A DNA stretch of 64,000 nt from Deltaproteobacteria bacterium (GCA_030018495.1 JASEFS010000001.1:161285-225284), one strand, 5' to 3'; numbered from the stretch's first letter, positions 13,693 to 60,996 are shown. The notes: generated by a model from the letters alone, not told the origin. Made by a program: numbers and translations.

Positions 13693-13732
13693 TCATGTCA
13701 ACCTTGCGGCGCAAGCCACCGCCCATTAATCC

Positions 13733-13957
13733 TTAAAAATCCTCATCGTCCATGATGCCTTTGTTGATGAACTTATAGAGGCTGCCGATCCATTCCAGTT
13801 CGTTTTCCAACTCCGAGTTGGCGAAGATCCATTCGCCCTCCCTGTCCTTGGCGATGATGACGATCTCTTCGATGTCGTCCAGGTCCTGGCAGAATTTCTC
13901 CACTACCTCCTGGACGGAGCGTTGGGCCTTCTCAAAAGGGATGATGTTTTTTCTCAT
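13733..13957 (-). CDS. Hypothetical small acidic protein (74 aa)
   Basis: ORF only; no family recognised and no obvious SD. Confidence 0.45.
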   Translation of the reverse strand: MRKNIIPFEKAQRSVQEVVEKFCQDLDDIEEIVIIAKDREGEWIFANSELENELEWIGSLYKFINKGIMDDEDF

Positions 13958-15008: not shown

Positions 15009-15137
15009 AGCGATTACAGTTTAAGGATAGCTGGGACATGATGCCGGGTGCTTTTCAAAAAACTGAGACCGTCGATGCGGCGGCCGTCCCTGGCCGGGCA
15101 TGCAGGCCCGCAACCGGCGACCCCCCAAGTCCTTATT

Positions 15138-17302: not shown

Positions 17303-17360
17303 GGCAACCTCTATGGTTGATGGTCAGGAGCCGGTTATTGGCCCGGTCTGCCGAAATCCT

Positions 17361-42289: not shown

Positions 42290-43693
42290 TCAAGATTCCG
42301 CCACAGAATTAATGGCGTTATTCAGCCGGCGCAGACACTCCTCCTTGCCCAGGATGGGGATGAGCTCCGTCAGGCTGGGGCTGGCGCTCTTGCCGGTCAG
42401 GGCCACCCGCACGGGCTGGGCCAGGTCCACCAGCTTGCAGCCCTTGTCTGCGCAAATGTCCTTAAGCAGGTCAGTCAGAGATTCCTCAGAAAGCTCCTGT
42501 AGGGCTGACAGCCGGGCCGCGGTCTCCCGCAACAGAGGGACGGACGCGGGCGTCAGGAATTTTTTGGCCGCCTTCTCATCGTAGGGGCGGGGATCAAGAA
42601 AATAAAAACGGGCCGCGTCGGCCATTTCCACCAGTGTCTTGCTGCGCTTGTTCAGAGTAGGCACAATCCTGGCCACGTAATCCGGGTCGGGATTCTCCAC
42701 CCCGATAGCGGCCAGGAAGGGGGTAAGCAAAGCAGCCAGCTCCCGGGGCGGGGTCACCTTGATGTAGTGGCTGTTAAGCCACAACAGCTTCTCCTGGTCG
42801 AAAACGCCGGGGGATTTGCCCACGTGGTCCAGATCGAAATACTCGATGAGCTCGGCCATGGAGAAAATTTCCTGGTCGCCCCGGGACCATCCCAGGCGGG
42901 CCAGAAAATTGTTCAGGCTCTGGGGCAGTATCCCCTGTTCCCGGTACGCCAACACCGGGAGAGCCCCGTGCCGCTTGGAGAGCTTGGTCCGGTCCTTGCC
43001 CAGCATCAGGGGCATATGGGCAAACTCGGGAGGATCAACGCCATAGGCCTGGTATATGAGAATCTGCCGAGGGGTGTTGGAGATATGGTCGTCGCCCCGG
43101 ATGATATGGGTCACCCTCATGGTGATGTCATCCACCACCACCGCGAGGTTGTATGTGGGGATGCCGTCCGCCCGCATGATTACCAGGTCGTCCAGCTCCT
43201 GGTTGTCAAACGCAATGTGGCCTTTGATGCGGTCTTGCCAATGGGTGGTGCCGGTCTCAGGGGTCTTGAAGCGCACCGCGGTTCCGGGACCCGGGGCCAG
43301 GCCCCTCTCCCGGCAACGGCGGTTGTACCTGGGTTTCTCTCCTTTGGCCAGCGCCGCCTGGCGGCGGGTCTCCAGGTCTTCGGGATCGCAATCGCAGCAG
43401 TAGGCATGGCCGCTGTCCAACAGGCGCTTGACGTATTCATGGTAGATATCCAGGCGCTGGGACTGGCGGTACGGGCCTTCGTCCCAATTAAGGCCGAGCC
43501 ACCGCAGGGACTCCTGGATTTCCTCAACGAACTTTTCCTGGGAGCGCTCCCTGTCGGTGTCTTCAATGCGCAAAATGAACACACCGCCGAAGTGGCGGGC
43601 ATAAAGCCAGTTGAACAGCGCGGTGTGGGCGCCGCCCAGGTGCAGGGCCCCGGTGGGGCTGGGCGAAAAGCGGGTGCGTACCTGTGTCATCAT
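42290..43693 (-). CDS. gltX: Glutamate--tRNA ligase
   Basis: RFSPSPTGALHLGGAHTALFNW (HIGH-type) and KLSKRHG (KMSKS-type). Confidence 0.95.
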   Translation of the reverse strand: MMTQVRTRFSPSPTGALHLGGAHTALFNWLYARHFGGVFILRIEDTDRERSQEKFVEEIQESLRWLGLNWDEGPYRQSQRLDIYHEYVKRLLDSGHAYCCDCDPEDLETRRQAALAKGEKPRYNRRCRERGLAPGPGTAVRFKTPETGTTHWQDRIKGHIAFDNQELDDLVIMRADGIPTYNLAVVVDDITMRVTHIIRGDDHISNTPRQILIYQAYGVDPPEFAHMPLMLGKDRTKLSKRHGALPVLAYREQGILPQSLNNFLARLGWSRGDQEIFSMAELIEYFDLDHVGKSPGVFDQEKLLWLNSHYIKVTPPRELAALLTPFLAAIGVENPDPDYVARIVPTLNKRSKTLVEMADAARFYFLDPRPYDEKAAKKFLTPASVPLLRETAARLSALQELSEESLTDLLKDICADKGCKLVDLAQPVRVALTGKSASPSLTELIPILGKEECLRRLNNAINSVAES

Positions 43694-44680: not shown

Positions 44681-44983
44681 TTACTTGGCGGTCGGCGGCG
44701 TTTTGGAGAACTGCTTGGCTATTACTTTGCCGTTGACAAACTGAACCGATATCACTGTATCGCCCTTTTTCCAAACCGAAGTTGTGCCTGCGAATACCGC
44801 CACGTCAACCCCGGAGGATTCGGTGGGCGGCCCCAGAATGGCTTGCACCTCGGCCTCAGTCATGCCGGTTTTGATCTTATCGAAGTTGGCTTTACTGATT
44901 TTGTTTTCGCCGCAAGAAGCCGTGATCAAAGCCAAGGCCAGGAGAACGGAAAGTATGCGCCACCTGCGAAAACTGTTTTTCAT
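44681..44983 (-). CDS. Small lipoprotein (SmpA/OmlA- or DUF3862-like)
   Basis: ATG 44983. Lipobox ITASC. KANFDKIKTGMTEAEVQAILGPP motif. Confidence 0.65.
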   Translation of the reverse strand: MKNSFRRWRILSVLLALALITASCGENKISKANFDKIKTGMTEAEVQAILGPPTESSGVDVAVFAGTTSVWKKGDTVISVQFVNGKVIAKQFSKTPPTAK

Positions 44984-45207
44984 AACTTCCCCCTGAATCA
45001 AATCTCCTGCCATAATAACCGAGATAGCCCAAAAAATCATAAAGAATTGTTCCAGACCGGAGCTGATCAGGCGGACGGGCTCAGGGACAGGCAGCCTCGG
45101 CTGTCCACCCCGGCAGGCAAAGGCGCCTGACCCGGAGGTGACCATGAACTTTCCGGAACATCTGCAATATAACGGCCCTTATCTGAAATTGTGACTTTTT
45201 GCAGGTC

Positions 45208-45250
45208 AAAAAAAAGCGAGAGAGACATTCGAATTGGCTATCTCTCTCGC
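45208..45250 (-). terminator. Rho-independent terminator of the oxidoreductase operon
   Basis: On the minus strand: gcgagagag-17 nt loop-ctctctcgc followed by T8, about 20 nt after the stop of the 1131-aa gene. Confidence 0.7.
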
Positions 45251-45269
45251 CGGATCAGGAGGGCTGCTG

Positions 45270-48200
45270 TTACCAGAGATTCACAAACGTTTGGGCGCGT
45301 TGGGACCGGGCGCAGGCAGGGCAGAGAGCCCGGCGCACCTGCTTGCCTATGGCCTCATCGCTGCGCTGAACAACGTATTCCATATACCGGGAAGGAGCCA
45401 GAGGCGCGCCGCAGGATTGACAATGTTCGGCTTCCATGTGATTTAGAACCGTGCCGCACAGGCGCACCTCCCGGTAGTCCGGCCCCTCCTCGTAATCAAT
45501 GGCCTGGGTGGGGCAGGCCAGGGCGCAAGCGCCGCAGGCGATGCAGGTATTGGCCGCCAGGGGATAATCGGTAAGGACCCGCTCCGTAGTGGTGATTTGC
45601 GAAAATTTCAGGGCATGCACCCGCATCCGGTGGCAGGTCCGCTCGCAAGCACCACAGCGGATGCAGATATCGCAGCGCAGGCAGCGCTGCGCCTCCTTGA
45701 TGGCCTGAGCGTCGGAATAACCCAATTCCACGGGCGCAAAGGTGGTTTTGCGCAGCTCCACATCCAACATGGGGATCGGGGTGCGGTGATTGGCGGTTTT
45801 CTCCGACGCCGGGATAATTTGAAAAGGCACCTTGCGGCGCTTTTGGGCGCTCATGACCAGGGCCGGACTGGTGGCCCCGGTAATGTAATGGTCGATTTCA
45901 GCCGCAGCCTGTTTCCCGGCGGCAATGGCTTCCACCACCGTGGCCGGCCCGGTGACGGCATCGCCGCCTGAGAAGATGTCTTTCACCTTGGTGCGGGTGC
46001 TGTTGGGCTGGGTGACGATGGTGCACCAGGGAGTGGTTTCCACCGGAGGTTCCGGGAAAGGACAGAAATCCGGCTGCTGGCCGATGGCCGTAATGACCGC
46101 GCCGGCCTCGATGATGTAGTTGCTCTCCGGGATAGGTATGGGACGGCGCCGGCCGCTGGCGTCCGGCCGCCCCAATTCGGCCTGGAGGCATTCCACATGG
46201 GTGACCCGGCCGTCTTCGCCGCCGATCTTAATGGGCACTGTCAGGAAATGGATCTGCACCCCTTCTTCCAGGGCCTGCTCCACTTCCTCCGGGTGGGCCG
46301 GCATTTCGGCCCGGGTGCGGCGGTAGGAGACATGCACCTCGGAGCAGCCCAGGCGCACGCAAGTGCGGGCCGCATCCATGGCCGCGTTGCCGCCGCCGAT
46401 AATCACCACCTTGTCTGCGGGCTTTTCCTTTTTGCCCAGATAAATGTTTCTTAAAAAGGAGATAACGTCATAAACCTGGGGAAAGTCGGTTTCGCCTTCG
46501 ATCTTCAGCTTGTACCCCAGGTGGGCGCCGATGCCCATGAAGATGGCTTCAAAGCCTTGGGCCCTGATCTCCTCCAGGGTAATATCCTGGCCCACCGTAA
46601 CCCCGGTTTTGATTTTCACGCCTAGGGACTTGATAAGGCGGATTTCTTTGCTTACCACCTCCCGGGCCAGCCGGTAGTCGGGAATGGCCGCCATTAAGAG
46701 GCCGCCCGGCTCCTTCTGGGCTTCAAACACCGTCACCTCATAACCTCGCAGAGCCAGGAAATAGGCGCAGGACAGTCCCGCAGGCCCGGCCCCCACGACC
46801 GCCACTTTATGGCCGTTGGCCGGGCCCGGCTGCGGCGGGAAAAAGTTCCCGTGCTTGGATACCCACTCAGACGCGAAGGCCTTCAGATAGCGAATGTTGA
46901 TGGACTCATCCAGATTGGCCCGGACGCATTCCCGTTCACAGGGATGGGGACAGACCAGGCCGCAAACCCAGGGGAAGGGATTATCCTCCCGCATCACCTC
47001 CCAGGCTTCCTGAAAGTTGCCTTGGGCGATCAAGCCGATAAAGCTGGGAATGTCGATGCCGGTGGGGCAGGCCTGATGGCAGGGGGCTAACAGGAGCTTG
47101 GGGCAGGACCGGGCCGGGCAATGCTTGTTCTCCAGATGCAGACGGAATTCTTCCGGAAAGTAATGCAGTGCGGTCAGCAGGGGGTTGGTGGCGTGCCGGG
47201 CCAGTTCGCAGGACCCTTTCATCTTTAGAGTCTGGGCCCGGGTCTGCAGCTCTTTCAAGGTTTCCTGACTGCCGATGCCCTCGGAGACCTGCTCCAATAA
47301 GTTTCTGATACCGAGCAGGGCCTCCTGGCAGGCGGGACACTGGCCCCCCGGCTGGTCCAGTATGAAGTCGAGCTGTTCCCGCACCAGGGAGACCAGACAA
47401 TCCCGTTCATCCAGAACCTGGATAGAGCCGACGGACAGGGTGGCGCCCATTTCTCTGAGGGTTTCATGGGCCAGGTTGATATTCAGCAAATTGAGGGGAA
47501 AGATTCCTCCCAAAGGGCCGCCTACCTGGACGCCTTTGGGGGAGCGGCCGAAACGGAAGCCCCCGCCTTCGCCGTGAATAACTTCGTGCAAAGTGGCGGA
47601 GAGGGGCACTTCCACAAACCCGGGGCGCTCCACCGAGCCGTGCAGACGGAAGATCATGGTGCCCGGGGCGCATTCCACTCCCAGTTTGCGGAACCAGGCC
47701 ACCGGCGTTTGGGCGATAAACGGCAAGGAGGCAATGGTCCCCAGGCTGTGGGTGAGGAAAATCCGCCTGGGATACTGATCCCAGAAGCCTCGGGGCAAAA
47801 GCCCGGTTATCCCCCGGATGAGCAGGTCTTCGTCCTCCATCATGTACCGGCCGTGGCCGGAAACCACTATCACGTCAATCAGCGGTTCCTTCTTCGGCCA
47901 GATGGGCGCGGCCACACAAGCCTTGATGGCCTGCTGGAGCCGTTCCCGAGCCAGCTCATCCTCCTCCGCCAGATAAACTATGGCGGCCTCGGCCTTCAAG
48001 GTTTTGGCGGCCAGGAGGATGCCCTCCAGCACCTGGTGGGGACAGCCTTCCAGCAGGAACATCTCGCTGCTGGCGCCGAGCGTCGGGGTCGCGGCATTCA
48101 CCACCAGGATGGGCTGTTCCTTTTCCACCCGAAGTTCGCACCACCGTTTTCCCAGGGGAGAAGTGGTGATCCGGGCGAATTCGCAAAAACCCGCGGCCAC

Positions 48201-48665
48201 GACTTTCTGGAGAAAGGAGTCAAACCCCTGGCTGAGAAAGGTTTGCAGGCCCTTATAGCCGTCGTAATCCTGGTATTCTTCCCAGGACACGGGGTCGATC
48301 TGTCCCACCAGTTCTGAGATATAGCGTTTTTGAGGTTCGATGAAGTCGCGGAAATCCTTGCCTACCAGCCAGCGCTGCACCGGTCGTTTTTCATCGATAT
48401 GGCTCTGGATGATGCGGGCCGCCATGTCCGGGGTGACCAGCTCATAAAGGTGAGAGCCCGCGGCGTCCCGCACCTCCACCACCACGTCCCGGCCTTCAAT
48501 GCCCCGCCAGCCCACCAGGTGGACTTCCAAGGGCCCCAGGTCGTCCAGGTGGCGCTCTTTCATTTCCGCCAGAAAGGCTTCCTGGACGTCTCTGGCCGCT
48601 TTGAGGCTTTTGCCGGGAAAAGTGCAAATGTTTACACGAAGTAACGGACGCCCATTATTCGGCAT
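45270..48665 (-). CDS. 1131-aa multidomain Fe-S flavoprotein: degenerate NuoF-like module, GltD/NADPH-oxidoreductase-like module and 2x[4Fe-4S] ferredoxin-like C-terminus
   Basis: NuoF-like LLEGCPHQVLEGILLAA and an SLBB-like segment, but no GGAGFP-type FMN loop. GltD-like CPTGIDIPSFIGLIAQGNF...CGLVCPHPCERECVR, VAVVGAGPAGLSCAYFLALRG, VVIIGGGNAAMDAART. C-terminal CLRCDICIRCGACERTC and CIACGACALACP. Confidence 0.85.
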   Translation of the reverse strand: MPNNGRPLLRVNICTFPGKSLKAARDVQEAFLAEMKERHLDDLGPLEVHLVGWRGIEGRDVVVEVRDAAGSHLYELVTPDMAARIIQSHIDEKRPVQRWLVGKDFRDFIEPQKRYISELVGQIDPVSWEEYQDYDGYKGLQTFLSQGFDSFLQKVVAAGFCEFARITTSPLGKRWCELRVEKEQPILVVNAATPTLGASSEMFLLEGCPHQVLEGILLAAKTLKAEAAIVYLAEEDELARERLQQAIKACVAAPIWPKKEPLIDVIVVSGHGRYMMEDEDLLIRGITGLLPRGFWDQYPRRIFLTHSLGTIASLPFIAQTPVAWFRKLGVECAPGTMIFRLHGSVERPGFVEVPLSATLHEVIHGEGGGFRFGRSPKGVQVGGPLGGIFPLNLLNINLAHETLREMGATLSVGSIQVLDERDCLVSLVREQLDFILDQPGGQCPACQEALLGIRNLLEQVSEGIGSQETLKELQTRAQTLKMKGSCELARHATNPLLTALHYFPEEFRLHLENKHCPARSCPKLLLAPCHQACPTGIDIPSFIGLIAQGNFQEAWEVMREDNPFPWVCGLVCPHPCERECVRANLDESINIRYLKAFASEWVSKHGNFFPPQPGPANGHKVAVVGAGPAGLSCAYFLALRGYEVTVFEAQKEPGGLLMAAIPDYRLAREVVSKEIRLIKSLGVKIKTGVTVGQDITLEEIRAQGFEAIFMGIGAHLGYKLKIEGETDFPQVYDVISFLRNIYLGKKEKPADKVVIIGGGNAAMDAARTCVRLGCSEVHVSYRRTRAEMPAHPEEVEQALEEGVQIHFLTVPIKIGGEDGRVTHVECLQAELGRPDASGRRRPIPIPESNYIIEAGAVITAIGQQPDFCPFPEPPVETTPWCTIVTQPNSTRTKVKDIFSGGDAVTGPATVVEAIAAGKQAAAEIDHYITGATSPALVMSAQKRRKVPFQIIPASEKTANHRTPIPMLDVELRKTTFAPVELGYSDAQAIKEAQRCLRCDICIRCGACERTCHRMRVHALKFSQITTTERVLTDYPLAANTCIACGACALACPTQAIDYEEGPDYREVRLCGTVLNHMEAEHCQSCGAPLAPSRYMEYVVQRSDEAIGKQVRRALCPACARSQRAQTFVNLW

Positions 48666-48746
48666 GGTTATCTAGCTCCCTTTTTCGACATCTAAGGGAA
48701 AGCGACCAGGGATGCAAAAAGTTTCCCCCTGCCGCTCGTTATATGG

Positions 48747-49271
48747 TTAACGACCGCTGACTACGGACTCCAGTTCAAAGGCCACGGTCTTGGCGAAGCG
48801 CTCCCGCTTGGTTAGGTCCATTTGCTCCACCCGGCCGAAGCTCAGGCAATGGGTGACGCACTTGGCCACGCAGGCCGGCTCCAGCCCCTGGTCGACCCGG
48901 TCCATGCAGTAGTCGCACTTCACCACCTTGCCGGTTTCCGGGTTCCACTGGGGGGCGCCCCAGGGACAGGCGGTGATGCAGCTCTTGCAGCCCACGCACA
49001 GGGCCGGTTCCACATAGACGATGCCGTCTTCGGGGCGTTTGCGCATAGCGTGGGTGGGGCATACAGGCACGCACCACGGGTCCTCGCAATGGAAGCAGGG
49101 CATGAAGATGAAGGCCTGCCGGGGCAGTCCCGCCACCATTTTGGGGCCCACCGGCATGATCTGTCCCAAACGGGGACCGGCGTTCAGCCCCTTGTTGCTC
49201 TTGCAATGCACTTCGCAGCTCAAGCAGCCGATACATTTTTTCTGATCTTGAAGTAGATAGTATTTGCTCAT
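48747..49271 (-). CDS. 4Fe-4S dicluster electron-transfer subunit (PsrB/PhsB/DmsB-like, short)
   Basis: CIGCLSCEVHC, CFHCEDPWCVPVCP, CVGCKSCITACP, CDYC. 10 nt downstream of the molybdopterin subunit. Confidence 0.85.
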   Translation of the reverse strand: MSKYYLLQDQKKCIGCLSCEVHCKSNKGLNAGPRLGQIMPVGPKMVAGLPRQAFIFMPCFHCEDPWCVPVCPTHAMRKRPEDGIVYVEPALCVGCKSCITACPWGAPQWNPETGKVVKCDYCMDRVDQGLEPACVAKCVTHCLSFGRVEQMDLTKRERFAKTVAFELESVVSGR

Positions 49272-49280
49272 GGGTTATCC

Positions 49281-51374
49281 TCACTTCACCGGACGGACCT
49301 GCACCAGGGTTTCGTCCAGGGCAGGGCTGCCGCCCACTTTATCCGAGATATTTTCCTGCAGCAGGGCATCGCTGGCGCCCTTCAGATAGCAACGGGTCTG
49401 GGCCGGCACGGTCTTGCCGAAGCCGTGCAGCATAAATACCGCTTCCGGGTGAATGAAATCGGTGACCTTGGCCTTGAGTTTGCCGTTGGTGTTCAAGGGA
49501 TTGGAGACCACCTCCACATACTGCCCATCCTTGATGCCCAGCTTGGCCGCAGCCGCGGTATGAATCCACAATTCATTTTCAGGCACAAGCTCATTCAATA
49601 ACAGATTGTTCTGCGTGGACACGTGGGTGTGGGCCGCGCACCGTCCCACCAAGAGGCGGAAGCGGCCTTCAGGCGGCGCAGCCACAGGCTCATACGGGGG
49701 AAAAGAGGGAAATCCGGCTTTTTCCATCAGCGAGCTGACAAACTCGATTTTGCCGGATGGGGTTTTGAATTTGATCCCGTCTTTACGGTCCCACAGAATA
49801 GCCTTATCAGTCAGGGACACAAACCCCTTGGCGTCGAAGTCCTCGATTTTCACCCCCATGTCCTTGAGCTGGAAGTTCCAGATGTCTTCGATGGTCTCAT
49901 AGGGGAAGTATTGTCCCAGCTCCAGGCGGGTGGCTATTTCCTTCCAAATAAGCCAGGCGGGCTTGGTGTCATACCGAGGCGTAACCGCCTGCTTGCGGAT
50001 GCGCAGGGAAGGCTTCAAGCCCGAGACCATTTGAATGGAATCGGCCCGCTCCAGATAAATGGACTCCGGCAGGATGACGTCGGCATACCAGGCAATTTCG
50101 CTGAAGTTGATATCAACGGCAACGATAAGGTCCAGCTTATTCAGGGCCTGCCGCACCTGGGCGCTGTCGGGGATGGACTGAAGCGGCTCAAAGCGGTTGG
50201 CAATGAGAGCCTTGATGGGGTACGGGTCCTCATTAATGATGGCGTGGGCCAGCATCTGGGGGTTGCCGTGGGAGGAATCCGCAATGGGGAAAGCCTCCGC
50301 GCCGGAGCCGTCAAACCGAGGCGCGTTGATCTTGGGGAATTCCTGGCTGACGTATTTGCCGATATCCCCCCGGCCTGCGGCCGCAGCGCCTTTCTTGAAG
50401 AACAACCCACCTTGGGCTTCGATGCTGCCCATCAGGGCGTTCAGGATGATTATGGAACGCCGGAAATAAATCTCATTGGGGTGATGGGCGCCCCGGTAGC
50501 CGTAGTGAAAGACGCAGGCCGGCTTGACTTCGGACATCTCCCGGGCCAAGTTTTTGATTTCCCCAGCCGGGATGCCGGTCTCGGCCTCGGCCCACTCCGG
50601 CGTATAGGGCTCCACGAAGGCTATCAGTTCGTTTAAGCCTGATACCCAGCGCCTGACATAGTCCTGATCATAAAGCTTTTCCTTCAGGATGGTGTGGATC
50701 AGGGCATAATTCAGGGCCAGGTCAGTGCCCGGGCGGATCATCCAGTAGCGGTCCGCCTTGGTGGCGGTGATGCTTACCCGCGGGTCGATATAGGTGAGCT
50801 TGGCCCCTTTGTCCATGGCCTTCAGAAGATTGTTGATGGGCGCGATCTCCAGGGCCTCGAAAATGTTGCGGCCATACATGACGATATGCCGGGTGTTGGC
50901 ATAGTCGACGCCCACCTGGGGGTCGGCATAGCCTGTCAGGCTGCGGAACGCGGTGTTCACGGACCCCTTGCACAACGCGTCGTGGGTGAAGTGGTTGGGG
51001 GAGCCGATGGCTTTCATGAAGGTCTTGCTGATGTGGGTGTTGAGGTTGGTGCGCTCTCCGAACACCACGCTGTGGCCGCCGTGCTCCTGGATGATGGCCT
51101 TGAGCTTGTCCGCCACATAGTCCAGGGCCTCCTCCCAACCGGCGCGGCGCCACTGGCCCGCCCCCCGCTCTCCGGTGCGGATCATGGGATATTGGGGCCG
51201 CTCATGGTCGTGCAGCAGGGCCAACCCGGCCGAGCCTTTGGCGCACAGCGCGCCCTCAATGCCAGGCACATGGGGGTTCCCCTGTATCCAAACCACGTCG
51301 TCGTTGGCCACCATCACCCGGATGGGGCAGCGCACGGTGCACATGAAACATATGCTCCAGACTTCGGTTGACAT
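49281..51374 (-). CDS. Molybdopterin (bis-MGD) oxidoreductase catalytic subunit, Psr/Phs/Ttr/Arr-like, apparently cytoplasmic
   Basis: N-terminal CFMCTVRCPIRV...CAKG FeS motif immediately after the Met, with no twin-arginine signal. Candidate Mo ligand context HFTHDALCKGS (Cys, not Sec). Confidence 0.9.
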   Translation of the reverse strand: MSTEVWSICFMCTVRCPIRVMVANDDVVWIQGNPHVPGIEGALCAKGSAGLALLHDHERPQYPMIRTGERGAGQWRRAGWEEALDYVADKLKAIIQEHGGHSVVFGERTNLNTHISKTFMKAIGSPNHFTHDALCKGSVNTAFRSLTGYADPQVGVDYANTRHIVMYGRNIFEALEIAPINNLLKAMDKGAKLTYIDPRVSITATKADRYWMIRPGTDLALNYALIHTILKEKLYDQDYVRRWVSGLNELIAFVEPYTPEWAEAETGIPAGEIKNLAREMSEVKPACVFHYGYRGAHHPNEIYFRRSIIILNALMGSIEAQGGLFFKKGAAAAGRGDIGKYVSQEFPKINAPRFDGSGAEAFPIADSSHGNPQMLAHAIINEDPYPIKALIANRFEPLQSIPDSAQVRQALNKLDLIVAVDINFSEIAWYADVILPESIYLERADSIQMVSGLKPSLRIRKQAVTPRYDTKPAWLIWKEIATRLELGQYFPYETIEDIWNFQLKDMGVKIEDFDAKGFVSLTDKAILWDRKDGIKFKTPSGKIEFVSSLMEKAGFPSFPPYEPVAAPPEGRFRLLVGRCAAHTHVSTQNNLLLNELVPENELWIHTAAAAKLGIKDGQYVEVVSNPLNTNGKLKAKVTDFIHPEAVFMLHGFGKTVPAQTRCYLKGASDALLQENISDKVGGSPALDETLVQVRPVK

Positions 51375-51441
51375 ATTTCTTTACCTCTCTTGCTATAACC
51401 TTATAGATTTTGTCATATTTTCGATATTAGCACAATAGGTT

Positions 51442-51461
51442 CTAGACATTATTATGTCTAG
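51442..51461. promoter_or_regulatory. Perfect 8-bp-arm palindrome upstream of the molybdopterin gene
   Basis: ctagacat-tatt-atgtctag, about 70 nt upstream of ATG 51374. Half-site ctagacat recurs at 53355-53362 next to the sigma-54 promoter. Confidence 0.45.
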
Positions 51462-51563
51462 GGCACTGGGAGGCTGACTTTTCTGCCACCGGTTAACCAC
51501 CTTTTAAGTTTAGTCCCCAGATTAAGAGGAACTGAACAGCGGTCCGGGGCTTCTTTGTTTGTC

Positions 51564-52067
51564 CTAACCGGATTTGGCCTGGGACGGACTGACCCAGGGC
51601 AGCCGTTTTATAGCCAGGTATGCGACTATATAGATAATAATGAAAGGCCCGATGAATCCCATGGACCAGCCGGTGCCGGGTATGGGAAACTCCACCTCCA
51701 GAAAGCGGTACTGCATCCAGGCCAGGGCGAAAAAAACGGGCCACAGAAAGGCCGCCGACAGGGCGGCCTGTTGGAAAAAGGAATGGCCGAAGGCCTCGTT
51801 GGCCAGCTCATTGGCGGCTTGATAGGCTTCCTTGTTCCCGGCCTTCAGGGCGTCCATGGACAGGTTCTGGTATTCTTCCGCTTCCGCCGCCTTCTCCTCA
51901 AGGCGTCTCCGGGTAATCCGAAAAACCGCAAAAACGCTTAGTTTGCCGATGAGCAGACAAAAACACGCCAGGGCAAAGGTGCCGATGCAAAAGTCCACCC
52001 AGGCATGGCCGGTGAGGCGGTAGAACCAGATCAGATAGGGGTCCAGGACCTGATAGAAAGGATGCAT
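51564..52067 (-). CDS. Hypothetical membrane protein (167 aa)
   Basis: Hydrophobic helices flanking a charged helical loop (RRRLEEKAAEAEEYQN...). Sits between the TauE-like and molybdopterin genes. Confidence 0.6.
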   Translation of the reverse strand: MHPFYQVLDPYLIWFYRLTGHAWVDFCIGTFALACFCLLIGKLSVFAVFRITRRRLEEKAAEAEEYQNLSMDALKAGNKEAYQAANELANEAFGHSFFQQAALSAAFLWPVFFALAWMQYRFLEVEFPIPGTGWSMGFIGPFIIIYIVAYLAIKRLPWVSPSQAKSG

Positions 52068-52130
52068 TTAGACCATTCCTAATGTGAGGGGGGTCGGCAG
52101 TTTACCAACCCCCCGGTGAAGTCGGTTTGT

Positions 52131-53291
52131 TTAAATGCCCGGCAGACGGATATCCGCAAAGCCGCGCAGGGTGTAGCCTAAGCCCACATAGAGTGCCAGG
52201 ATCACAAACAGCCTCTTGAGCCAGACATCGGGAATATACTTGGAGGTGTAAGGCCCGACAATGGAGCCGGTGGCGATGCCCACCAATTCGGCGCCGACGA
52301 ACAGGAAGTCAATGGGAGTGCCCTTGACGAACATAAAGGTGAAGATGGAGGTGATCATGCTGATGAACACCGCCAGGGCCGAGGTGCCGGCCACCACGTA
52401 CATGGGTAGGTTCACGATATTGGTGCAAAAGGGCACATAGAGAAAGCCGCCGCCGATGCCCAGGAAGGCCGACAGGGCTGCAATGAAAAAGCCGCCCACC
52501 ACCGGCCAAATGGGGTTGAAGTTGAAATCCACCCCGTAGAAGCTGAAGTCTACCCTGGTAAGGCCCCAGGATTTCACCCGCACTCCCTGGGCTGCGATTT
52601 CACCGGAGGCGGCGCCTTTTTTCACAGCTTCCTGGAAAGCCTGGGCGGCCTGCTTGGCCTTTTTCTTCTTTTCCTGTCCCCGGGGAGTGGTGTCATAGAA
52701 GAGAAAAGCTCCGATAACAAAAACGATGATGCCAAAATAGCCCACGTAGGCCTTAAGGCTGATCTTGCCGGCGGTGAGCACCGGAATGAGATAAGCGCCG
52801 GCAACGCCGCCGATGGCCAGGGCCACGCCCAACGGCAGAACCAGGCGGCCCATGCGGTAGTAGGTGACAGAGGACATCAATGCCGAAAGTCCCACCAGGT
52901 ACTGGTTGGAGGTGCGGATGGAGTCGGTGACCAGCTTGTTCAGGACCGGGCTGGTTTTCCGGAAGCTTGCCGCGTAATCACCCAGGCCGAAGACGCTGAT
53001 GTGCCCCACACCGGCCATGATGCCGCCGAACGCGCCCACGGTGGAAAAGATCCAGCCTACCCAGATGCCCCACAGAATGCCATAAAACCAGAAGGGGGTT
53101 GGGCCGCCCGGTATCCCCATGAAGCCCTTGGGCGCGTCAGGGTTGATCATGCCTTTTTCCGTCCCCTTGGGGGTTTGGGCGATGGCATCCTCCAATTTGC
53201 CGGCCCAGGAAGTGTCGGCCAAGGTCAGGGTGACCGCTATTACGGCCAAAACCGCGAGTATACCGAAGATTAAAAGGCCTTTTCTGTTCAT
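52131..53291 (-). CDS. TauE/SafE (DUF81) family anion permease with long cytoplasmic loop
   Basis: Multi-TM with repeated G-rich helices (GIGGGFLYVP...). AAGGAG RBS. Sigma-54 promoter upstream. Confidence 0.75.
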   Translation of the reverse strand: MNRKGLLIFGILAVLAVIAVTLTLADTSWAGKLEDAIAQTPKGTEKGMINPDAPKGFMGIPGGPTPFWFYGILWGIWVGWIFSTVGAFGGIMAGVGHISVFGLGDYAASFRKTSPVLNKLVTDSIRTSNQYLVGLSALMSSVTYYRMGRLVLPLGVALAIGGVAGAYLIPVLTAGKISLKAYVGYFGIIVFVIGAFLFYDTTPRGQEKKKKAKQAAQAFQEAVKKGAASGEIAAQGVRVKSWGLTRVDFSFYGVDFNFNPIWPVVGGFFIAALSAFLGIGGGFLYVPFCTNIVNLPMYVVAGTSALAVFISMITSIFTFMFVKGTPIDFLFVGAELVGIATGSIVGPYTSKYIPDVWLKRLFVILALYVGLGYTLRGFADIRLPGI

Positions 53292-53335
53292 AAATAATTC
53301 ACTCCTTATCCAAAATTTAAAATCAGTTAATTGAA

Positions 53336-53351
53336 AGCAAATTATATGCCA
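53336..53351 (-). promoter_or_regulatory. Sigma-54 (-24/-12) promoter
   Basis: Minus strand reads TGGCATATAATTTGCT (TGGCAT-N5-TTGC, canonical spacing), about 45 nt upstream of ATG 53291. A divergent EBP gene is adjacent. Confidence 0.75.
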
Positions 53352-53431
53352 TTACTAGACATTGAAATATTGAGGATAACATCTTAAAATTACAGATAAA
53401 TTAAAAAGCTTGATAAATATTGTGTAAATCC

Positions 53432-53456
53432 TGTAAACTTTACATTGTTAACAATT
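53432..53456. promoter_or_regulatory. Adjacent palindromes, candidate enhancer/operator sites
   Basis: tgtaaa-c-tttaca (53432-53444) and attgttaacaat (53445-53456), about 85-120 nt upstream of the -24/-12 element. Confidence 0.35.
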
Positions 53457-53487
53457 AATATTAAGCAGAATTCTGGTCGGTGCGATC

Positions 53488-54933
53488 ATGGAGAAAAGCA
53501 GGCAGGAAAGCTTCTGGGAGAAGGTCATCGATACCATGGGACAGGGCGTGCTGGTGGTTAACTCCCGGGGACGCATCCTGTTCGCCAACGACGCGGTGGA
53601 GGAGATCACCGGTTACCGCCGGAGCGAGCTTATCGGACAGCCATGCGCCATTTTAAGGAGCGATGCCTGCTTCGGCGCGGCCTCTGGCGCACCGGGGAGT
53701 CATTGTGAGCTGTTTCAGAAGGGCTCCATAAAGAGCTGTAAAGGCGCGCTGGTGAAAAAGGACGGAGGTTTGGTACACATCTTGAAGAATGCCGTCATGT
53801 TAGAAGACGGCACCGGCCAGACGGTAGGCGTGGAAACCCTCACCGATATCAGCGAAATGGTGGCTAAAGAGCGGGTGATTTCCCGACTGCGCCGCGAAAT
53901 CAGCCGGGAGGACAGTTTTCAGGGCATGATCGGCAAGTCGCCGGTTATGGATCAACTGTTCTGTCTTATCTCCAGTGCGGCGCAATCTGACGCTCCGGTG
54001 ATCATTTATGGGGAAAGCGGCGTCGGCAAAGAACTGGCGGCCGCGGCCATCCACCGATTGGGAGAGCGCCACCGGGGGCCGTTTATCAAGGTGAACAGCG
54101 CGGCGTTGGCCGAGTCCATATTGGAAAGTGAGCTTTTCGGGCATGTACGGGGGGCTTTCACCGGGGCCGAGCGCACCCGGGCGGGCCGGTTCGAAGCCGC
54201 CCATGGAGGCGACATTTTTTTGGATGAGGTGGGGGACCTCCCCCTGGCGACTCAGGCCAAGCTGCTCCGAGTCCTCCAGGAGAAGGTTGTCGAACGGGTG
54301 GGGGACCATCGGCCCATTCCGGTGGATGTCCGGATTATATCCGCCACCAACCAGGACCTTCCCCGCCTTATAGCTGAAGGACGCTTTCGTGAGGACCTGT
54401 TTTACCGGATTAACGTCATTCCCATTCATATCCCGCCCCTAAGAGAGCGCCGGGAGGACATCCCCCTTCTGGTGGAAGCGTTCATTGAACGCAACCGGCT
54501 TAAAACCCGGAAACCCATCAGCGGCATCAGTAAAGAAGCTTTAGATAAGATCCTGGCTTACCGATGGCCGGGCAACGTCCGGGAACTTATCAATGCCATT
54601 GATTATGCCTTTGTGCTCTGCCACGAGGGAGCTATCTTGCCGAAACACCTTCCCGGTGCGCTGAATCATCAGAAAGCTCCCCGGTCCATGGGCGGGCGCG
54701 CGGTGCTGCCGGCCAGTCCGGCCAGGGATAGGGAGGCTTTAATGGACGCGATGGAACAGGCCGCAGGCAATAAATCCGAGGCCGCCAGAATCCTGGGAGT
54801 AAGCCGGGTGACCTTGTGGAAATGGCTTAAAAACTATCAATTGAATGGTGAGGACGGCTCCGCTTTCCCCGGAAAGGCGGACAGTGAGTTGCCGCCTCCG
54901 AGGTCCCGGAGAATTGTGGGAATTAAAAAATAA
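53488..54933 (+). CDS. Sigma-54-dependent transcriptional activator (PAS, AAA+, Fis-type HTH)
   Basis: Walker A GESGVGKE, GAFTGA loop (RGAFTGAER), C-terminal AARILGVSRVTLWKWLK. N-terminal PAS-like domain. Confidence 0.9.
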   Translation: MEKSRQESFWEKVIDTMGQGVLVVNSRGRILFANDAVEEITGYRRSELIGQPCAILRSDACFGAASGAPGSHCELFQKGSIKSCKGALVKKDGGLVHILKNAVMLEDGTGQTVGVETLTDISEMVAKERVISRLRREISREDSFQGMIGKSPVMDQLFCLISSAAQSDAPVIIYGESGVGKELAAAAIHRLGERHRGPFIKVNSAALAESILESELFGHVRGAFTGAERTRAGRFEAAHGGDIFLDEVGDLPLATQAKLLRVLQEKVVERVGDHRPIPVDVRIISATNQDLPRLIAEGRFREDLFYRINVIPIHIPPLRERREDIPLLVEAFIERNRLKTRKPISGISKEALDKILAYRWPGNVRELINAIDYAFVLCHEGAILPKHLPGALNHQKAPRSMGGRAVLPASPARDREALMDAMEQAAGNKSEAARILGVSRVTLWKWLKNYQLNGEDGSAFPGKADSELPPPRSRRIVGIKK

Positions 54934-54959: not shown

Positions 54960-55907
54960 GTGACCGCTAAAAAAAGCAGCAGAATTCTATGGGGGCTCGC
55001 GGCCGCCCTGGCCTGGGGCATGCTTATCCTGGCCGGCTGCGGGGACAGCGAACCGGCCAAGAAAATCGACTTATCCAAGCGGGAGGAGACGATATACCGG
55101 CAGGAGGACGCCATCACTTATGCCTATCTGCCCCAATACGCCCATACGGTCTCTTATGAGCGCCATCACCTGGTGGTGGACTATCTGAGCCGCACCACCG
55201 GGATGACGTTTCGCCAGGTTTTCCCGGACACGTTTGACGAGCATATGAACATGGTGGGAAGAGGCCTCATAGACATCACCTTCAGCAACCCCTTCATTTA
55301 TGTGAACATCGCCGACCGCTACGGCGCCCGGGCCTTTGCCCGCATAGTGGAAGCCAAAGGCAAGGAGAATTTCCGCGGCCAGATCATTTGCCGGGCTGAC
55401 AATCCGCAAATCAAAACGCTGAATGACATCAAGGGCAAGCGCTTGATTGCTGTTGACCCCACTTCGGCCGGCGGCTTCCTTTATCCCTGGGGCTGGATTT
55501 TGGAGCACGGCATCCGTAAGGAGGATCTGGCGGAAATCGCCTTTGCTCCGGGGCCGGGCGGCAAGCAGGAAAAAGTGGTTATGGCGGTCTTGTCGGGCAA
55601 GTACGATGTGGGGGTCATCCGGGAGGGAACACTGGATATCATGGCCAACAAGATTGATGTTAACCAAATAAGAGTGTTGGCCTACTCACGTTGGTACCCT
55701 GGCTGGGTGTATGCGGCCCGGCGGGGACTGGACCCGGCCATCGTGGACAAAATTAAACAGGCCTTGCTGGCTTTAAACATGGACGATGCCGATCATGCCA
55801 CTATTCTAAAAAAGGCCGGTTTTATTGCTATTATCCCGGCCAAGGATGAAGATTTTAACTCGGTGCGGCGGCTGGCCCAGATCGTGGAAGCCGGCGGCAA
55901 GCCCTAA
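54960..55907 (+). CDS. PhnD-like (phosphate/phosphonate-type) periplasmic substrate-binding lipoprotein
   Basis: Lipobox LILAGCG. YLPQYAH...; type-2 SBP pattern with GKRLIAVDPTSAGGFLYP. GTG start. Confidence 0.75.
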   Translation: MTAKKSSRILWGLAAALAWGMLILAGCGDSEPAKKIDLSKREETIYRQEDAITYAYLPQYAHTVSYERHHLVVDYLSRTTGMTFRQVFPDTFDEHMNMVGRGLIDITFSNPFIYVNIADRYGARAFARIVEAKGKENFRGQIICRADNPQIKTLNDIKGKRLIAVDPTSAGGFLYPWGWILEHGIRKEDLAEIAFAPGPGGKQEKVVMAVLSGKYDVGVIREGTLDIMANKIDVNQIRVLAYSRWYPGWVYAARRGLDPAIVDKIKQALLALNMDDADHATILKKAGFIAIIPAKDEDFNSVRRLAQIVEAGGKP

Positions 55908-55977
55908 GGCCATGGAGGAATTCAGCGGCAAACCGACCCCCCCAGGAAGTCCTGGAGCGGCTGATAAGGTGGGAATT

Positions 55978-58071
55978 ATGCGGTTTTTTAGCAGCCTGTC
56001 TTTACGCAGCAAGATATTTTTGATCATTACCGCGGTGGTTTTGGTTTTCGGCTTACTTTCGGCGACGTTTGTGAGCCGTATTGCCACTAAGGCCATGGTG
56101 GGGGAAATCAAAAAGCGGGGCCTTACCCTGGGTCTGGGTTTGGCGGCCCGGATTGCGGATCCCATGCTGGCCGTTGATTTTCTCCGCCTGAAGAATATGG
56201 TGGATCAGGTAAAAGAGTCCAGTGACGACATTGTCTATGTATTTGTTCTGGATAAAAATGAGAGGGTGTTATCCCATACTTTCAAGAGCGGCTTCCCGGT
56301 CAACCTGAGAACCGCCAACCAGGTGCCGCCGGGCGCCGGCCAGCATATTCAATTGCTGGAAATCGACGAGGAAGAGCGGGTTTACGACTTCGCTCTGCCT
56401 ATAGTGATCAGCCATGCGCGTTTGGGCACGGTCCGGCTGGGGCTTTCTCAGATCAAGGCCCAAGCTGCGGTGCAGCGCCTTTTGTTCATTATATTCAGCG
56501 CCTCTCTGGGAGCCGGCCTAGTGGCGGTGGTGCTGGGAACCCTGTTCGCCAGCACCGTCACTCGGCGTCTGGACGTCTTGCGCAGGTCCGCAGAAATGAT
56601 GGTCAAGGGCAACCTGGATATCCAAACCGGCCCGCAGCTCAAAAGCAACTGCTGGCAGATCAGGGATTGTCAGAAGATGGAATGTCCGGCTTTTGGCGAC
56701 GTTCGGCGCCGCTGCTGGTATTTGGCCGGCACCATGTGCCCCGAATGCGCGCCGGGCGGGTTTGAACAAAAGTACGAAACCTGCAAAAACTGTGAAGTCT
56801 TTTGGGCCAGCAGTGGCGATGAAATCCAGAGTTTGGCCGAGGCTTTTGATTTCATGGCTCTCAGTCTCAAATCCTATATCGAAAACCTTAAGGAGGCGGA
56901 AAAGAGCATTACCAGGCAGCAGCAGGTCCTCAAAACCATTCTGGACGTCACCCCTGATCCGGTCAGCCTCCAAGACGCAGATCTGCGCTATCGTGCGGTG
57001 AACCCCGCGTTCCGGTATTATTTTTCCATAGATGAAGCAGATATTATAGGCAAATCCGATGTGGACATCTTCTCCCCCGAATTGGCTGAGATGATACGCC
57101 GGGAGGATCTGGAGATTCTTAAAACCGGGCACACCTTATCCAAGGAAATCCTGGTCGGCAAGGACAACGACAAACATTGGTTTCACATGGTGAAGGTGCC
57201 GGTATACGATGAGAAACGGATTGCCGGCCTATTGTTTACGGCTCGGGATATTACTGAAATCAAGAAGTATCAGGAAAAGCTCATCCAAACCGTAAAGATG
57301 GAAGAGTTGGGCAAGTTGGCCGGGGGCGTGGCCCATGAAATCAATACCCCTTTGGGCATTATTTTGGGTTATGCCCAGATCCTGTTGGAAGATCTGCCCC
57401 AGGACACCGAGAGTCACGAATACCTGGAAATAATAGAGAAGCAGGCCCAAATCTGCCGCCACATCGTCGCGGACCTGCTCAACTTTTCCCGCGTCAGCGA
57501 CAGCCGTATGGAAGAAATGGATCTTAACCAGTCGATTGATGAGGTGGTGCACCTGGTGCGCCACATCTTCAAACAGGACTGGGTAGACATTCAAACCTCC
57601 CTTGATCCTCAAATCCCGGCTATACGGGGAGACCGGGAGAAGCTCAAGCAGGTTTGGCTTAATCTCCTGAACAACGCCTTTGAATCCATCGGCCGGGAAG
57701 GCACGATTCAGGTAACTTCAAAGTTGTGCCCCCAAGGCAACCATGTGGTGGTGAGCGTGGCCGATACCGGCGCCGGAATCAGCGCCGAAGACCAGAAGAA
57801 AATCTTTGAGCCCTTTTTCAGCACCAAGGCCCCGGGAGTGGGCACCGGGCTGGGCTTGTCGGTGTCCCTGGGCATTGTCCGGGAACATCAGGGCAAAATT
57901 ATTGCGGTAAGTCCGGCCCGAAGGGAATTCCTTGAGCAAGCGGGTGAGACCCAAAGACCCGGCGCCCTTTTCATCGTGCTCTTGCCGGTGAATTGGGAAA
58001 TACCCGTGGAGGATGCCTGCGAGGAGCTGGTGCGGCTCAATATCGATGACCAACAACTGGCGACCGGATAG
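55978..58071 (+). CDS. Sensor histidine kinase: periplasmic sensor, HAMP, Cys-rich two-CW domain, PAS, HisKA/HATPase
   Basis: H-box [13 protein letters not shown]; N/G boxes [31 protein letters not shown]...[13 protein letters not shown]...CKNC insert. ATG 55978 preferred (AAGGTGGG upstream); ATG 55912 also possible. Confidence 0.85.
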
Positions 58072-58079: not shown

Positions 58080-58454
58080 ATGGGACAGATACTGGTTCTG
58101 GATGACGTTTTGGATGCTGGAGTGATGATAAAGCGCATTCTGGAACGCAAAGGCCATCAGGTGGCGGTGTTCACCGACGAAGAAGAGGCCCTGGCGCATG
58201 CGCGCTCTCAGCCGGTAGACGTGGCCATCCTGGACATCAGGCTGAAAAAGATGAGCGGTGTCGATGTCTTGCAGGAGCTGATGAAAATATCTCCCCAGAC
58301 TCAGGTTATCATGCTTACGGGCTATCCCACCCTGGAAACGGCTCGGCAGGCCCAGGAGTGGGGGGCGTGCGATTATTGCATCAAACCCATCGACAAGGAT
58401 GAGCTGGAAGAAAAGGTGGCCAACGCGTTGGCGGCGGCGACCAGGCCCTCATGA
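58080..58454 (+). CDS. Single-domain (CheY-like) response regulator
   Basis: ILVLDD...VAILDIRLKKMSG...IMLTGY...CIKP. No output domain. Confidence 0.9.
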   Translation: MGQILVLDDVLDAGVMIKRILERKGHQVAVFTDEEEALAHARSQPVDVAILDIRLKKMSGVDVLQELMKISPQTQVIMLTGYPTLETARQAQEWGACDYCIKPIDKDELEEKVANALAAATRPS

Positions 58455-60964: not shown

Positions 60965-60996
60965 TGCCGGGGCACGGCTTATTTTAGAGATTTAGC

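Follow-up and report, generated by a model that had tools for sequence, protein, structure and literature searches.

PhsABC enzymes of enterobacteria such as Salmonella and the PsrABC enzyme of Thermus thermophilus (PDB 2vpw) combine a molybdoenzyme bearing a Tat leader with a four-cluster ferredoxin B subunit and a quinol-oxidising membrane anchor, PhsC or PsrC. PhsAB-like enzymes lacking both PhsC and a Tat leader have been discussed as cytoplasmic thiosulfate reductases (PMC13490349, PMC9751629, PMC4215793). When Dissulfuribacter thermophilus disproportionates thiosulfate, the proteins most strongly induced include a leaderless PhsAB-like enzyme, and a TauE protein and a 'co-occurring transmembrane protein' are induced alongside it (PMC13490349). 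PhsAB mutants of Desulfovibrio alaskensis G20 show a small fitness defect specific to thiosulfate (PMC4215793). Inactivation of a further set of genes, the Desulfovibrio nitrate cluster (DVU0251-0245 / Dde_0597-0605; Korte et al. 2014), leads to nitrate resistance; G20 mutants in this cluster are mildly impaired on thiosulfate, a leaky thiosulfate transporter was proposed (PMC4001038), and the cluster is regarded as a putative thiosulfate transporter (PMC4001038, PMC9723548). Here we describe a locus from Deltaproteobacteria bacterium (GCA_030018495.1), found in a stretch of 64,000 nt (JASEFS010000001.1:161285-225284; hereafter the window, with all positions counted from its first letter), which is a member of the leaderless PhsAB-like group with an operon-encoded NAD(P)H-type donor, fused to a nitrate-cluster transporter. 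The function we favour, to which we assign about an even chance, is regulated uptake of thiosulfate, which would then be cleaved reductively in the cytoplasm, with electrons from NAD(P)H, to give sulfite and sulfide.

The operon occupies the minus strand and consists of five collinear open reading frames (ORFs), identified by ORF calling together with Pfam and NCBIfam domains. In order of transcription, and with the shorthand used throughout, these are:

52131-53291, minus strand: TauE, a TauE/SafE (TSUP) anion permease of 386 residues (PF01925, 76.8 bits, E = 2.6e-21)

51564-52067, minus strand: M167, a membrane protein of 167 residues (ORF; no Pfam or NCBIfam match)

49281-51374, minus strand: MoA, the molybdoenzyme, a leaderless Mo/W-bisPGD catalytic subunit of 697 residues (Molybdop_Fe4S4, Molybdopterin and Molydop_binding domains)

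48747-49271, minus strand: FeSB, a four-cluster ferredoxin subunit of the PsrB/PhsB/DmsB type, 174 residues (Fer4_11; 16 cysteines in four motifs)

45270-48665, minus strand: Flav, an iron-sulfur flavoprotein of 1131 residues (Complex1_51K, NADH_4Fe-4S, Fer4_20, Pyr_redox_2 and Fer4 domains)

The gaps within the operon are 63, 189, 9 and 81 nt. A preliminary description, made from the sequence of the window alone, had given the same five-gene order, and all of the ORFs were recovered exactly at the coordinates it listed. A scan of one genome per species, in which gene order was read by tblastn of the window proteins, returned 79 loci (referred to by L numbers where they must be told apart). 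Almost all derive from Desulfobaccales, Syntrophobacterales and other Desulfobacterota metagenome-assembled genomes, and they include the cultured Desulfacinum infernum DSM 9756 (83% identity). The order TauE-M167-MoA-FeSB-Flav is collinear in approximately 45 of the 79 loci, which agrees with a conserved five-gene set, and in rearranged loci the TauE-M167 pair still adjoins the enzyme genes.

MoA shares with PhsA and PsrA the three domains (49.3, 170.2 and 49.8 bits for Molybdop_Fe4S4, Molybdopterin and Molydop_binding, respectively), the FS0 cluster motif and a cysteine Mo ligand. The motif, C-x2-C-x3-C, begins at residue 9 (C9, C12, C16 ... C44), and Cys135, set in HFTHDALCKGS, takes the place in the alignment of Cys173, the Mo ligand of PsrA (2vpw_A); with motif and ligand both retained, the enzyme appears catalytically competent. 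Against the PhsA model (NCBIfam NF012032) MoA scored 608.3 bits, short of the curated cut-off of 694, and all molybdoenzyme models other than PhsA reached at most 263 bits, the runner-up being Fdh-alpha at that value. The best solved relative and top PDB match is Thermus PsrA (2vpw, 404 bits), while E. coli plasmid PhsA is 36% identical (398 bits). MoA aligns over positions 41-744 of the PhsA model, which has 759 positions, and over residues 39-737 in Thermus PsrA. The kinship to Psr/Phs-type enzymes proposed in the preliminary description was therefore upheld, and these scores place MoA in the Psr/Phs/Srr clade of Mo/W-bisPGD (MopB/DMSO-reductase superfamily) subunits. A Nas-, Nap-, Arr- or Ttr-type enzyme was rejected, the corresponding models scoring 3- to 10-fold below PhsA, as was an acetylene-hydratase-like enzyme (2e7z, 199 bits against 404 for PsrA; four-cluster partner present).

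The window enzyme departs from PhsABC and PsrABC in its leader and in its electron input. MoA has no Tat leader, as the preliminary description had claimed, and no RR motif occurs in it: the ORF cannot be extended upstream, its cluster motif already begins at residue 9 and the model alignment starts late, leaving no room for such a leader. Neither MoA nor FeSB contains a transmembrane segment, and MoA is predicted to be cytoplasmic. Furthermore, no quinol-oxidising membrane C subunit is encoded in the operon, whose only membrane proteins are TauE and M167; on the E. coli plasmid, phsA is accompanied by phsB and a gene for a cytochrome b subunit, and the latter has no counterpart in the window. 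In place of the anchor, directly after FeSB, stands the soluble NAD(P)H-type flavoprotein.

Relatives of MoA were collected from 1.8 billion cluster representatives (clusters at 50% identity), of which 14,872 were found. Among full-length relatives the leader is distributed by similarity: 11 of 13 sequences scoring at least 500 bits are leaderless, compared with 2 of 10 at 400-500 bits and 5 of 38 at 300-400 bits. In a rough neighbour-joining tree of 71 sequences, midpoint-rooted and carrying no support values, the window MoA falls into a leaderless clade with the proteins of D. infernum, Desulfatibacillum and Solidesulfovibrio fructosivorans and 15 representatives. Members of this clade have no RR motif and carry the cluster motif at residue ~8. 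The Tat-bearing clade that includes PhsA is separate, and the split matches the presence or absence of the leader exactly. In this tree, the leaderless clade is placed as sister to the Tat-exported PhsA/PsrA enzymes, and MoA does not cluster tightly with any characterised enzyme having matching partners.

By description, the locus resembles the PhsAB-like proteins of Desulfobacterota (DITHS69_2027/2028; Desulfolithobacter PhsA-1/2; Dde_1076/1075), sharing with them PhsA and PhsB homologs and the lack of PhsC and of a Tat leader. The papers on these proteins (PMC13490349, PMC9751629, PMC4215793) report neither an electron-donor subunit nor a fused transporter operon; one of them proposes that electrons come from sulfite oxidation, whereas the window encodes a dedicated GltD-like flavoprotein. 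In the literature searched, no GltD/NuoF-like protein was described as a partner of PhsAB.

FeSB (Fer4_11, 91.8 bits; DmsB model, 143 bits) has neither a signal peptide nor a hydrophobic segment. Flav is composite. Residues ~23-525 are NfnB/HydB/NuoF-like, residues ~526-935 form a GltD-like module for FAD and NAD(P)H that carries two [4Fe-4S] clusters, and residues ~995-1060 constitute a 2x[4Fe-4S] ferredoxin domain, beyond which lies a C-terminal CxxC...CxxC motif. In sequence, both halves are closest to the NfnABC/StnABC complexes (9n5u, 9bov, 8oh5). Residues 526-1050 match the GltD-like N-terminal part of NfnA/StnA (9bov_A, 380 bits; 9n5u_A, 363 bits; 8oh5_C, 354 bits), and residues 23-525 match NfnB/StnB/HydB at ~215 bits (9n5u_B, 9bov_B, 8oh5_B). 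Flav also matches PRK12771 (521 bits), and its C-terminal half NfnI/SudA-type proteins. In full-length alignment with NfnA, StnA and NfnI, both the FAD motif (GAGPAG) and the motifs for NAD(P)H (GGGNAAMD, YRR) prove intact.

The N-terminal half, in contrast to this intact module, has lost its FMN/NADH signatures: RGRGGAGFPTG is replaced by EFARITTSPLG, NADEGDPGAF by NAATPTLGAS, GAGAFVCGEETAL by GHGRYMMEDEDLL and NNVET by HSLGT, and the first cysteine of the [4Fe-4S] motif beside the FMN/NADH site is missing. The D. infernum homolog is equally degenerate. In a clade of relatives at 62-65% identity the partner is a 719-residue GltD-like protein (L046) devoid of the NfnB-like domain. No NuoE-like [2Fe-2S] subunit is encoded in the operon, and the N-terminal thioredoxin-like region of Flav possesses a single cysteine. 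It is most likely as a structural remnant that the NuoF/HydB-like half persists; it looks like a scaffold that came down from a Bfu-type ancestor. Because the N-terminal motifs are degenerate and the domain is dispensable in the 62-65% clade, the working part would be the GltD-like NAD(P)H:Fe-S oxidoreductase with its two-cluster ferredoxin domain, and the electron donor to the enzyme is likely NAD(P)H. A true Bfu bifurcating enzyme was rejected on account of the degenerate cofactor motifs. The preliminary description had proposed a GltD-like NAD(P)H oxidoreductase fusion in lieu of the quinol anchor; the GltD module is indeed intact, but the N-terminal 520 residues are NfnB/HydB-like and degenerate.

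Two sets of known proteins wire a GltD-like module in a comparable manner. In NfnA and StnA this module is connected via Fe-S clusters to a MopB-fold protein, as in the window. The latter differs in that the B-type FMN/NADH site is degenerate, the NuoE-like C subunit is missing and the B and A parts are fused; moreover, the MopB domain of NfnA/StnA is inactive, whereas the MopB partner in the window is a separate protein retaining the FS0 motif and the cysteine ligand. In E. coli YgfK and AegA/YgfT and in NfnI/SudA a GltD-type module with two [4Fe-4S] clusters likewise feeds a separate catalytic subunit. Flav scored 364 bits against the YgfK model and 278 bits against AegA, far below the family cut-offs, and the partner enzymes of these proteins come from other families (xanthine-oxidase type, or none).

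The transporter half of the locus, together with the genes encoded divergently from it, corresponds to the nitrate cluster. Following the sigma-54 activator (EBP), five more genes lie on the plus strand, overlapping or separated by gaps of at most 26 nt:

53488-54933, plus strand: EBP, with PAS, AAA+ (GAFTGA) and Fis-type HTH (HTH_8) domains (Sigma54_activat, 229 bits), divergent from TauE

54960-55907, plus strand: PhnD/PtxB-like periplasmic anion-binding protein (PF12974, 209 bits), counterpart of DVU0249/Dde_0601

55825-58071, plus strand: histidine kinase with sCache, Cys-rich insert, PAS, HisKA and HATPase regions (Pfam), counterpart of DVU0248/Dde_0602

58080-58454, plus strand: receiver-only response regulator of 124 residues (ORF and homolog identity), counterpart of DVU0247/Dde_0603

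58451-60964, plus strand: PPDK_N / PEP-utilizer protein (Pfam and synteny), counterpart of DVU0246/Dde_0604

60997-62064, plus strand: dual-specificity phosphatase-like protein (Pfam; 52% identity in L083 and L084), counterpart of DVU0245/Dde_0605

All seven nitrate-cluster gene types (TauE, M167, binding protein, kinase, receiver, PPDK-like protein and phosphatase) are present and adjacent in the window, in the set and order of the Desulfovibrio cluster and with the composition of Table 3 of PMC4001038. The equivalence of window and DVU/Dde genes rests on gene architecture and on Solidesulfovibrio sequences: compared with the cluster of S. fructosivorans JJ, identities are 58% for TauE, 39% for M167, 63% for the binding protein, 47% for the kinase, 69% for the receiver, 41% for the PPDK-like protein and 52% for the phosphatase. 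In that strain the TauE-to-phosphatase set, in the gene order of Desulfovibrio strain DvH, lies directly beside a leaderless PhsA-like gene (45% identity), with a PhsB-like gene (54% identity) and an extra ferredoxin as further neighbours. Two differences set the window apart from the nitrate cluster. A sigma-54 activator stands between its two divergent halves, and MoA-FeSB-Flav occupies the place where G20 and Desulfobacca acetoxidans have a DUF169 gene; in DvH and G20, phsAB is found elsewhere in the genome. The view in the preliminary description that the locus could not be assigned to a characterised system was thus too pessimistic, in that TauE-M167 and the genes after the activator are homologous to the nitrate cluster. 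Its regulatory scheme of a single activator captured the EBP but too small a unit, which also takes in the binding protein, kinase, receiver, PPDK-like protein and phosphatase.

TauE exceeds the PF01925 gathering score of 32.6 (76.8 bits) and has hydrophobic segments in both halves, in keeping with a multi-TM 4+4 architecture; no sequence relative was found among solved structures. The protein is 87% identical to that of D. acetoxidans and 58% to that of S. fructosivorans and, as the counterpart of DVU0251/Dde_0598, is a putative thiosulfate importer. By the same analogy, M167 is the counterpart of the 'conserved hypothetical' DVU0250/Dde_0600. It is a constant companion of this TauE type, follows TauE in approximately 50 loci and gave no Pfam or NCBIfam match even at E <= 10. 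An AlphaFold2 (AF2) model of M167 (pLDDT 89) consists of a long helical hairpin flanked by terminal transmembrane helices, and matched no PDB fold at E <= 0.001. The UniProt label 'DUF106' on the D. acetoxidans homolog was not substantiated, and the entries recovered with the Solidesulfovibrio homolog bear either no name or the label 'hypothetical'.

The binding protein is 63-76% identical in L083 and L080 and bears a weak similarity to TtrS sensors, and the receiver-only regulator is 81% identical to a PF00072 gene of D. acetoxidans and 69% to the S. fructosivorans gene. Homolog alignments of the kinase begin at residue ~49-55, and its true start is probably near 55975. Between the sensor region and the PAS domain the kinase carries a Cys-rich insert (~56640-56790, residues ~275-325), which may be a metal or Fe-S (redox) sensing element. 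Desulfovibrio mutants in the counterparts of the receiver, PPDK-like and phosphatase genes (58080-62064 in the window) are also nitrate resistant (PMC4001038). TauE, M167, the PPDK-like protein and the phosphatase form the most conserved core, found even in Desulfobulbus alkaliphilus (L084).

Expression of the operon was considered from four sequence elements:

53446-53453, no strand: TGTTAACA palindrome, candidate enhancer (upstream activating sequence) for the activator, inferred from recurrent GTTAA(C) motifs

53336-53351, minus strand: sigma-54 promoter TGGCATATAATTTGCT, with -24 TGGCAT and -12 TTGCT elements, 45-60 nt 5' of the TauE start

51442-51461, no strand: perfect 20-bp palindrome CTAGACATAATAATGTCTAG in the M167-MoA gap

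45208-45250, minus strand: intrinsic terminator ending the operon, with a 13-bp stem and U8 (-21.5 kcal/mol, z = -3.8)

The canonical sigma-54 promoter named in the preliminary description is present, and within the 64 kb of the window TGGCAY-N5-TTGCW is matched by TGGCATATAATTTGCT alone, against a chance expectation of 0.14. Matches of at least 10 of 11 positions lie 5' of TauE in 29 of approximately 50 related loci, against an expectation of ~0.01 per locus that we estimated from base probabilities. The divergent PAS-AAA+-HTH activator, also predicted beforehand, was confirmed: EBP has PAS, AAA+ and HTH_8 domains and no receiver domain, its GAFTGA motif is seen in the translation, and it is divergent from TauE in approximately 35 loci (tblastn). 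Of 31 EBP/TauE intergenic regions, 27-30 contain GTTAA(C) motifs, and the TGTTAACA palindrome, ~100 bp upstream of the -24 element, is a plausible enhancer. No sigma-54 site was found in the M167-MoA gap among the collinear loci. In L044, L046, L051 and L065, where the enzyme genes are transcribed separately, they have a TGGTAT-N5-TTGCT site of their own; when transporter and enzyme units are split, both thus carry sigma-54-type promoters. The strong terminator claimed at the end of the operon stood up equally well, as 0 of 200 shuffles folded as stably. A simple terminator scan of the window did not list this hairpin, probably because the narrower stem definition of the tool leaves a loop above its 8-nt limit, and the scan found no internal terminator within the five-gene operon. 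Comparison across loci lends indirect support to RpoN/EBP-dependent transcription and to a single five-gene mRNA.

As judged by TauE identity, L002, L004, L006 and L057 are among the closest relatives of the window, and they lack the sigma-54 promoter. A TTGACA-containing region lies where the sigma-54 promoter would be in L002 (5800-6140) and L004 (5160-5560), and in L006 and L057 (~5200-6200) a universal-stress-protein (usp) gene is inserted between activator and TauE. Control by sigma-54 is, on this evidence, frequent and not universal. The CTAGACATAATAATGTCTAG palindrome was not found in any related locus; it was rejected as a terminator because no T-run follows it.

From what is directly seen, namely gene content, the integrity or degeneracy of domains, the lack of an export signal or anchor, clade membership, synteny and promoter motifs, we infer the substrate, the direction of reaction, complex formation, the electron path and the signal as follows. 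The locus would be a system of two operons, in which the plus strand senses an external oxyanion and activates the divergent sigma-54 promoter. External thiosulfate would be sensed via the binding protein and kinase and via the PAS activator. The TauE permease and its obligatory partner M167 would import thiosulfate, which a soluble MoA-FeSB-Flav complex would split into sulfite and sulfide. NAD(P)H would hand electrons to FAD in the GltD-like module, from where they would travel through the [4Fe-4S] clusters of Flav to the four clusters of FeSB, and thence via FS0 of MoA to the Mo/W-bisPGD site (Cys135), encountering some nine [4Fe-4S] clusters along the route. The preliminary description had left the substrate open as a sulfur, selenium or similar oxyanion; a sulfur oxyanion was retained, and the list was narrowed towards thiosulfate because of the nitrate-cluster homology and the literature on leaderless PhsAB.

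Several points weigh against this assignment. The couple thiosulfate/(HS- + HSO3-) lies at approximately -400 mV, below NAD(P)H. Transfer from NAD(P)H to thiosulfate is consequently uphill under standard conditions (textbook potentials), and the reaction must be pulled by the rapid use of sulfite (by Dsr, or by Apr/Sat in disproportionation) and the loss of sulfide. DsrAB itself reduces thiosulfate (PMC4215793), and the thiosulfate phenotypes in Desulfovibrio are mild (PMC4001038, PMC4215793). The identity of MoA to any characterised enzyme is only ~36%, its PhsA score is sub-threshold, and the leaderless PhsAB-like group, to which the window has been likened by description, is uncharacterised. 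The Psr/Phs/Srr clade, moreover, also includes polysulfide, sulfur and selenite reductases (PMC10100899). On the regulatory side, L002 and L004 have no recognisable sigma-54 promoter, and the 189-nt gap 5' of MoA leaves room for an internal promoter.

To these is added the locus of the D. acetoxidans type strain DSM 11109 (L080, 8754-11482), which has the same regulators, including the activator, and M167 at 68% identity in addition to its close TauE homolog. Here a 276-residue DUF169 protein replaces the Mo enzyme and the flavoprotein; since it stands where the enzyme genes would be, the transporter does not need this enzyme. G20 also has a DUF169 gene beside TauE, whilst DvH has no homolog (PMC4001038), and none is encoded in the window. 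Given its position in D. acetoxidans and G20, DUF169 may stand in as the partner that processes the transported anion. By comparison of D. acetoxidans, G20 and Solidesulfovibrio, the transporter and regulators are thus the ancient core, and the PhsAB-like enzyme is a recurrent neighbour taken into the operon in this lineage.

Of the alternatives to thiosulfate reduction, the one that survives best, although we regard it as doubtful, has another S-S or chalcogen compound reaching the cytoplasm (polysulfide, an organic persulfide, trithionate, tetrathionate or selenite) as the substrate, the enzyme then being a reductase that draws on NAD(P)H for detoxification or scavenging. Within the Psr/Phs/Srr lineage, reductases of polysulfide, thiosulfate, sulfur and selenite are intermingled with no clean phylogenetic separation (PMC10100899), and for MoA the Thermus polysulfide reductase scores on par with enterobacterial PhsA (404 versus 398 bits). 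Reduction of such compounds by NAD(P)H is exergonic, unlike that of thiosulfate (textbook potentials), and a GltD-CCG (HdrD-like) fusion encoded ~1 kb 3' in many loci (see below) is a hint of disulfide or persulfide chemistry. Linkage to the TauE-M167 nitrate cluster, both tight and ancient, nevertheless points to a small imported oxyanion; besides nitrate resistance, the sole phenotype reported for that cluster concerns thiosulfate (PMC4001038), and polysulfide made in the cytoplasm needs neither an importer nor an external binding-protein sensor.

We give little credence to operation in the oxidative direction, whereby sulfite and sulfide would be joined to thiosulfate with reduction of NAD(P)+, TauE-M167 exporting the product or sulfite in stress relief or disproportionation. 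Such a reaction is exergonic, the couple lying below NAD(P)+/NAD(P)H (textbook potentials), and TauE was first described as a sulfite exporter. This runs counter to the genetics of nitrate resistance, which indicate that the homologous permease admits an anion inward (PMC4001038, PMC9723548), to the impairment of mutants with thiosulfate as electron acceptor (PMC4215793, PMC4001038), and to the periplasmic binding protein and kinase, which suggest sensing of an external substrate.

Equally improbable is that the substrate is some unrelated oxyanion or a compound free of sulfur (nitrate, chlorate and arsenate are examples), with coincidence alone tying the Desulfovibrio cluster to thiosulfate. 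The homologous permease evidently lets nitrate in (PMC4001038), the binding protein belongs to the phosphonate/phosphite family and MopB enzymes have switched substrate repeatedly (PMC10100899); yet the Nas, Nap, Arr and Ttr models fall well below PhsA, as given above, and Desulfovibrio does not use nitrate, the entry of which was deemed non-physiological (PMC4001038). The least probable of all is that Flav keeps a bifurcation or confurcation of the Bfu type (NfnABC/StnABC/HydABC), in which a second donor, for instance ferredoxin, would be coupled with NAD(P)H against the low thiosulfate potential. Such coupling would solve the thermodynamic problem of NAD(P)H alone, and Flav is a head-to-tail NfnB-like/NfnA-like fusion with bifurcating Nfn/Stn complexes as best PDB matches; but all B-type FMN/NADH signatures are gone along with one cysteine of the adjacent cluster, the operon has no NuoE-like subunit and the 62-65% clade relatives dispense with the whole domain.

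Under the favoured assignment to thiosulfate, the locus unites a candidate importer, a candidate reductase and a candidate electron donor under common regulation. Thiosulfate is a hub of the sedimentary sulfur cycle, and its uptake, its cytoplasmic cleavage and the cost of its low-potential reduction are a long-standing question. The candidate importer is also the route of nitrate poisoning of sulfate reducers, with relevance to the control of oil-field souring. The locus offers a concrete three-protein complex with a cultured carrier, D. infernum, and a functional context for the Desulfovibrio nitrate cluster, whilst the degenerate NfnB-like domain shows instructively how the scaffold of a bifurcating enzyme can be recycled. 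It is not a categorically new system; rather, cytoplasmic thiosulfate reduction, in terms of enzyme identity, donor and uptake, becomes directly testable. A bolder proposition, which we consider unlikely, holds that the complex is a soluble iron-sulfur molybdoenzyme of undescribed form, in which an Nfn/Stn-derived flavoprotein replaces the quinol anchor, and at the same time a dedicated cytoplasmic thiosulfate reductase. If true, this would connect in evolution the active Psr/Phs-type enzymes with the Bfu transhydrogenases and their inactive A-subunit MopB domain, and the dedicated cytoplasmic thiosulfate reductase long sought in sulfate reducers and disproportionators would be identified. The branch point between thiosulfate and sulfite would in addition be tied directly to the pyridine-nucleotide pool, perhaps with some energy coupling left, and the enigmatic nitrate cluster would have its function explained.

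Some related loci carry additional genes beside the enzyme. In Solidesulfovibrio (L083, 919-3066; L074, ~10100-12400) a MarR-type regulator and an FmdE/MoCF_biosynth (MoeA/MogA-like) fusion follow the leaderless PhsA-like gene, an arrangement that suggests dedicated cofactor handling for the enzyme. In L046 a NuoG-N-terminus-like protein with 2Fe-2S and 4Fe-4S motifs (12624-13844) is encoded after the short GltD-only flavoprotein, an electron input that differs from that of the window. The GltD-CCG fusion mentioned above is a protein of 844 residues encoded ~1 kb 3' of the flavoprotein gene in many loci (in L016 at 15042-17576; also in L005, L008, L010, L012, L014-L017, L031, L036, L055, L064 and L067) and absent from the window. 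It comprises a GltD-like NAD(P)H/FAD module, a two-cluster ferredoxin domain and two CCG (HdrD/HdrB-type) domains, an architecture that suggests an NAD(P)H-dependent disulfide or persulfide reductase.

Beyond the terminator, the window continues with genes for a BamE/DUF3862-like lipoprotein (44681-45145) and a glutamyl-tRNA synthetase (42290-43693), which are unrelated to the cluster and mark its boundary.

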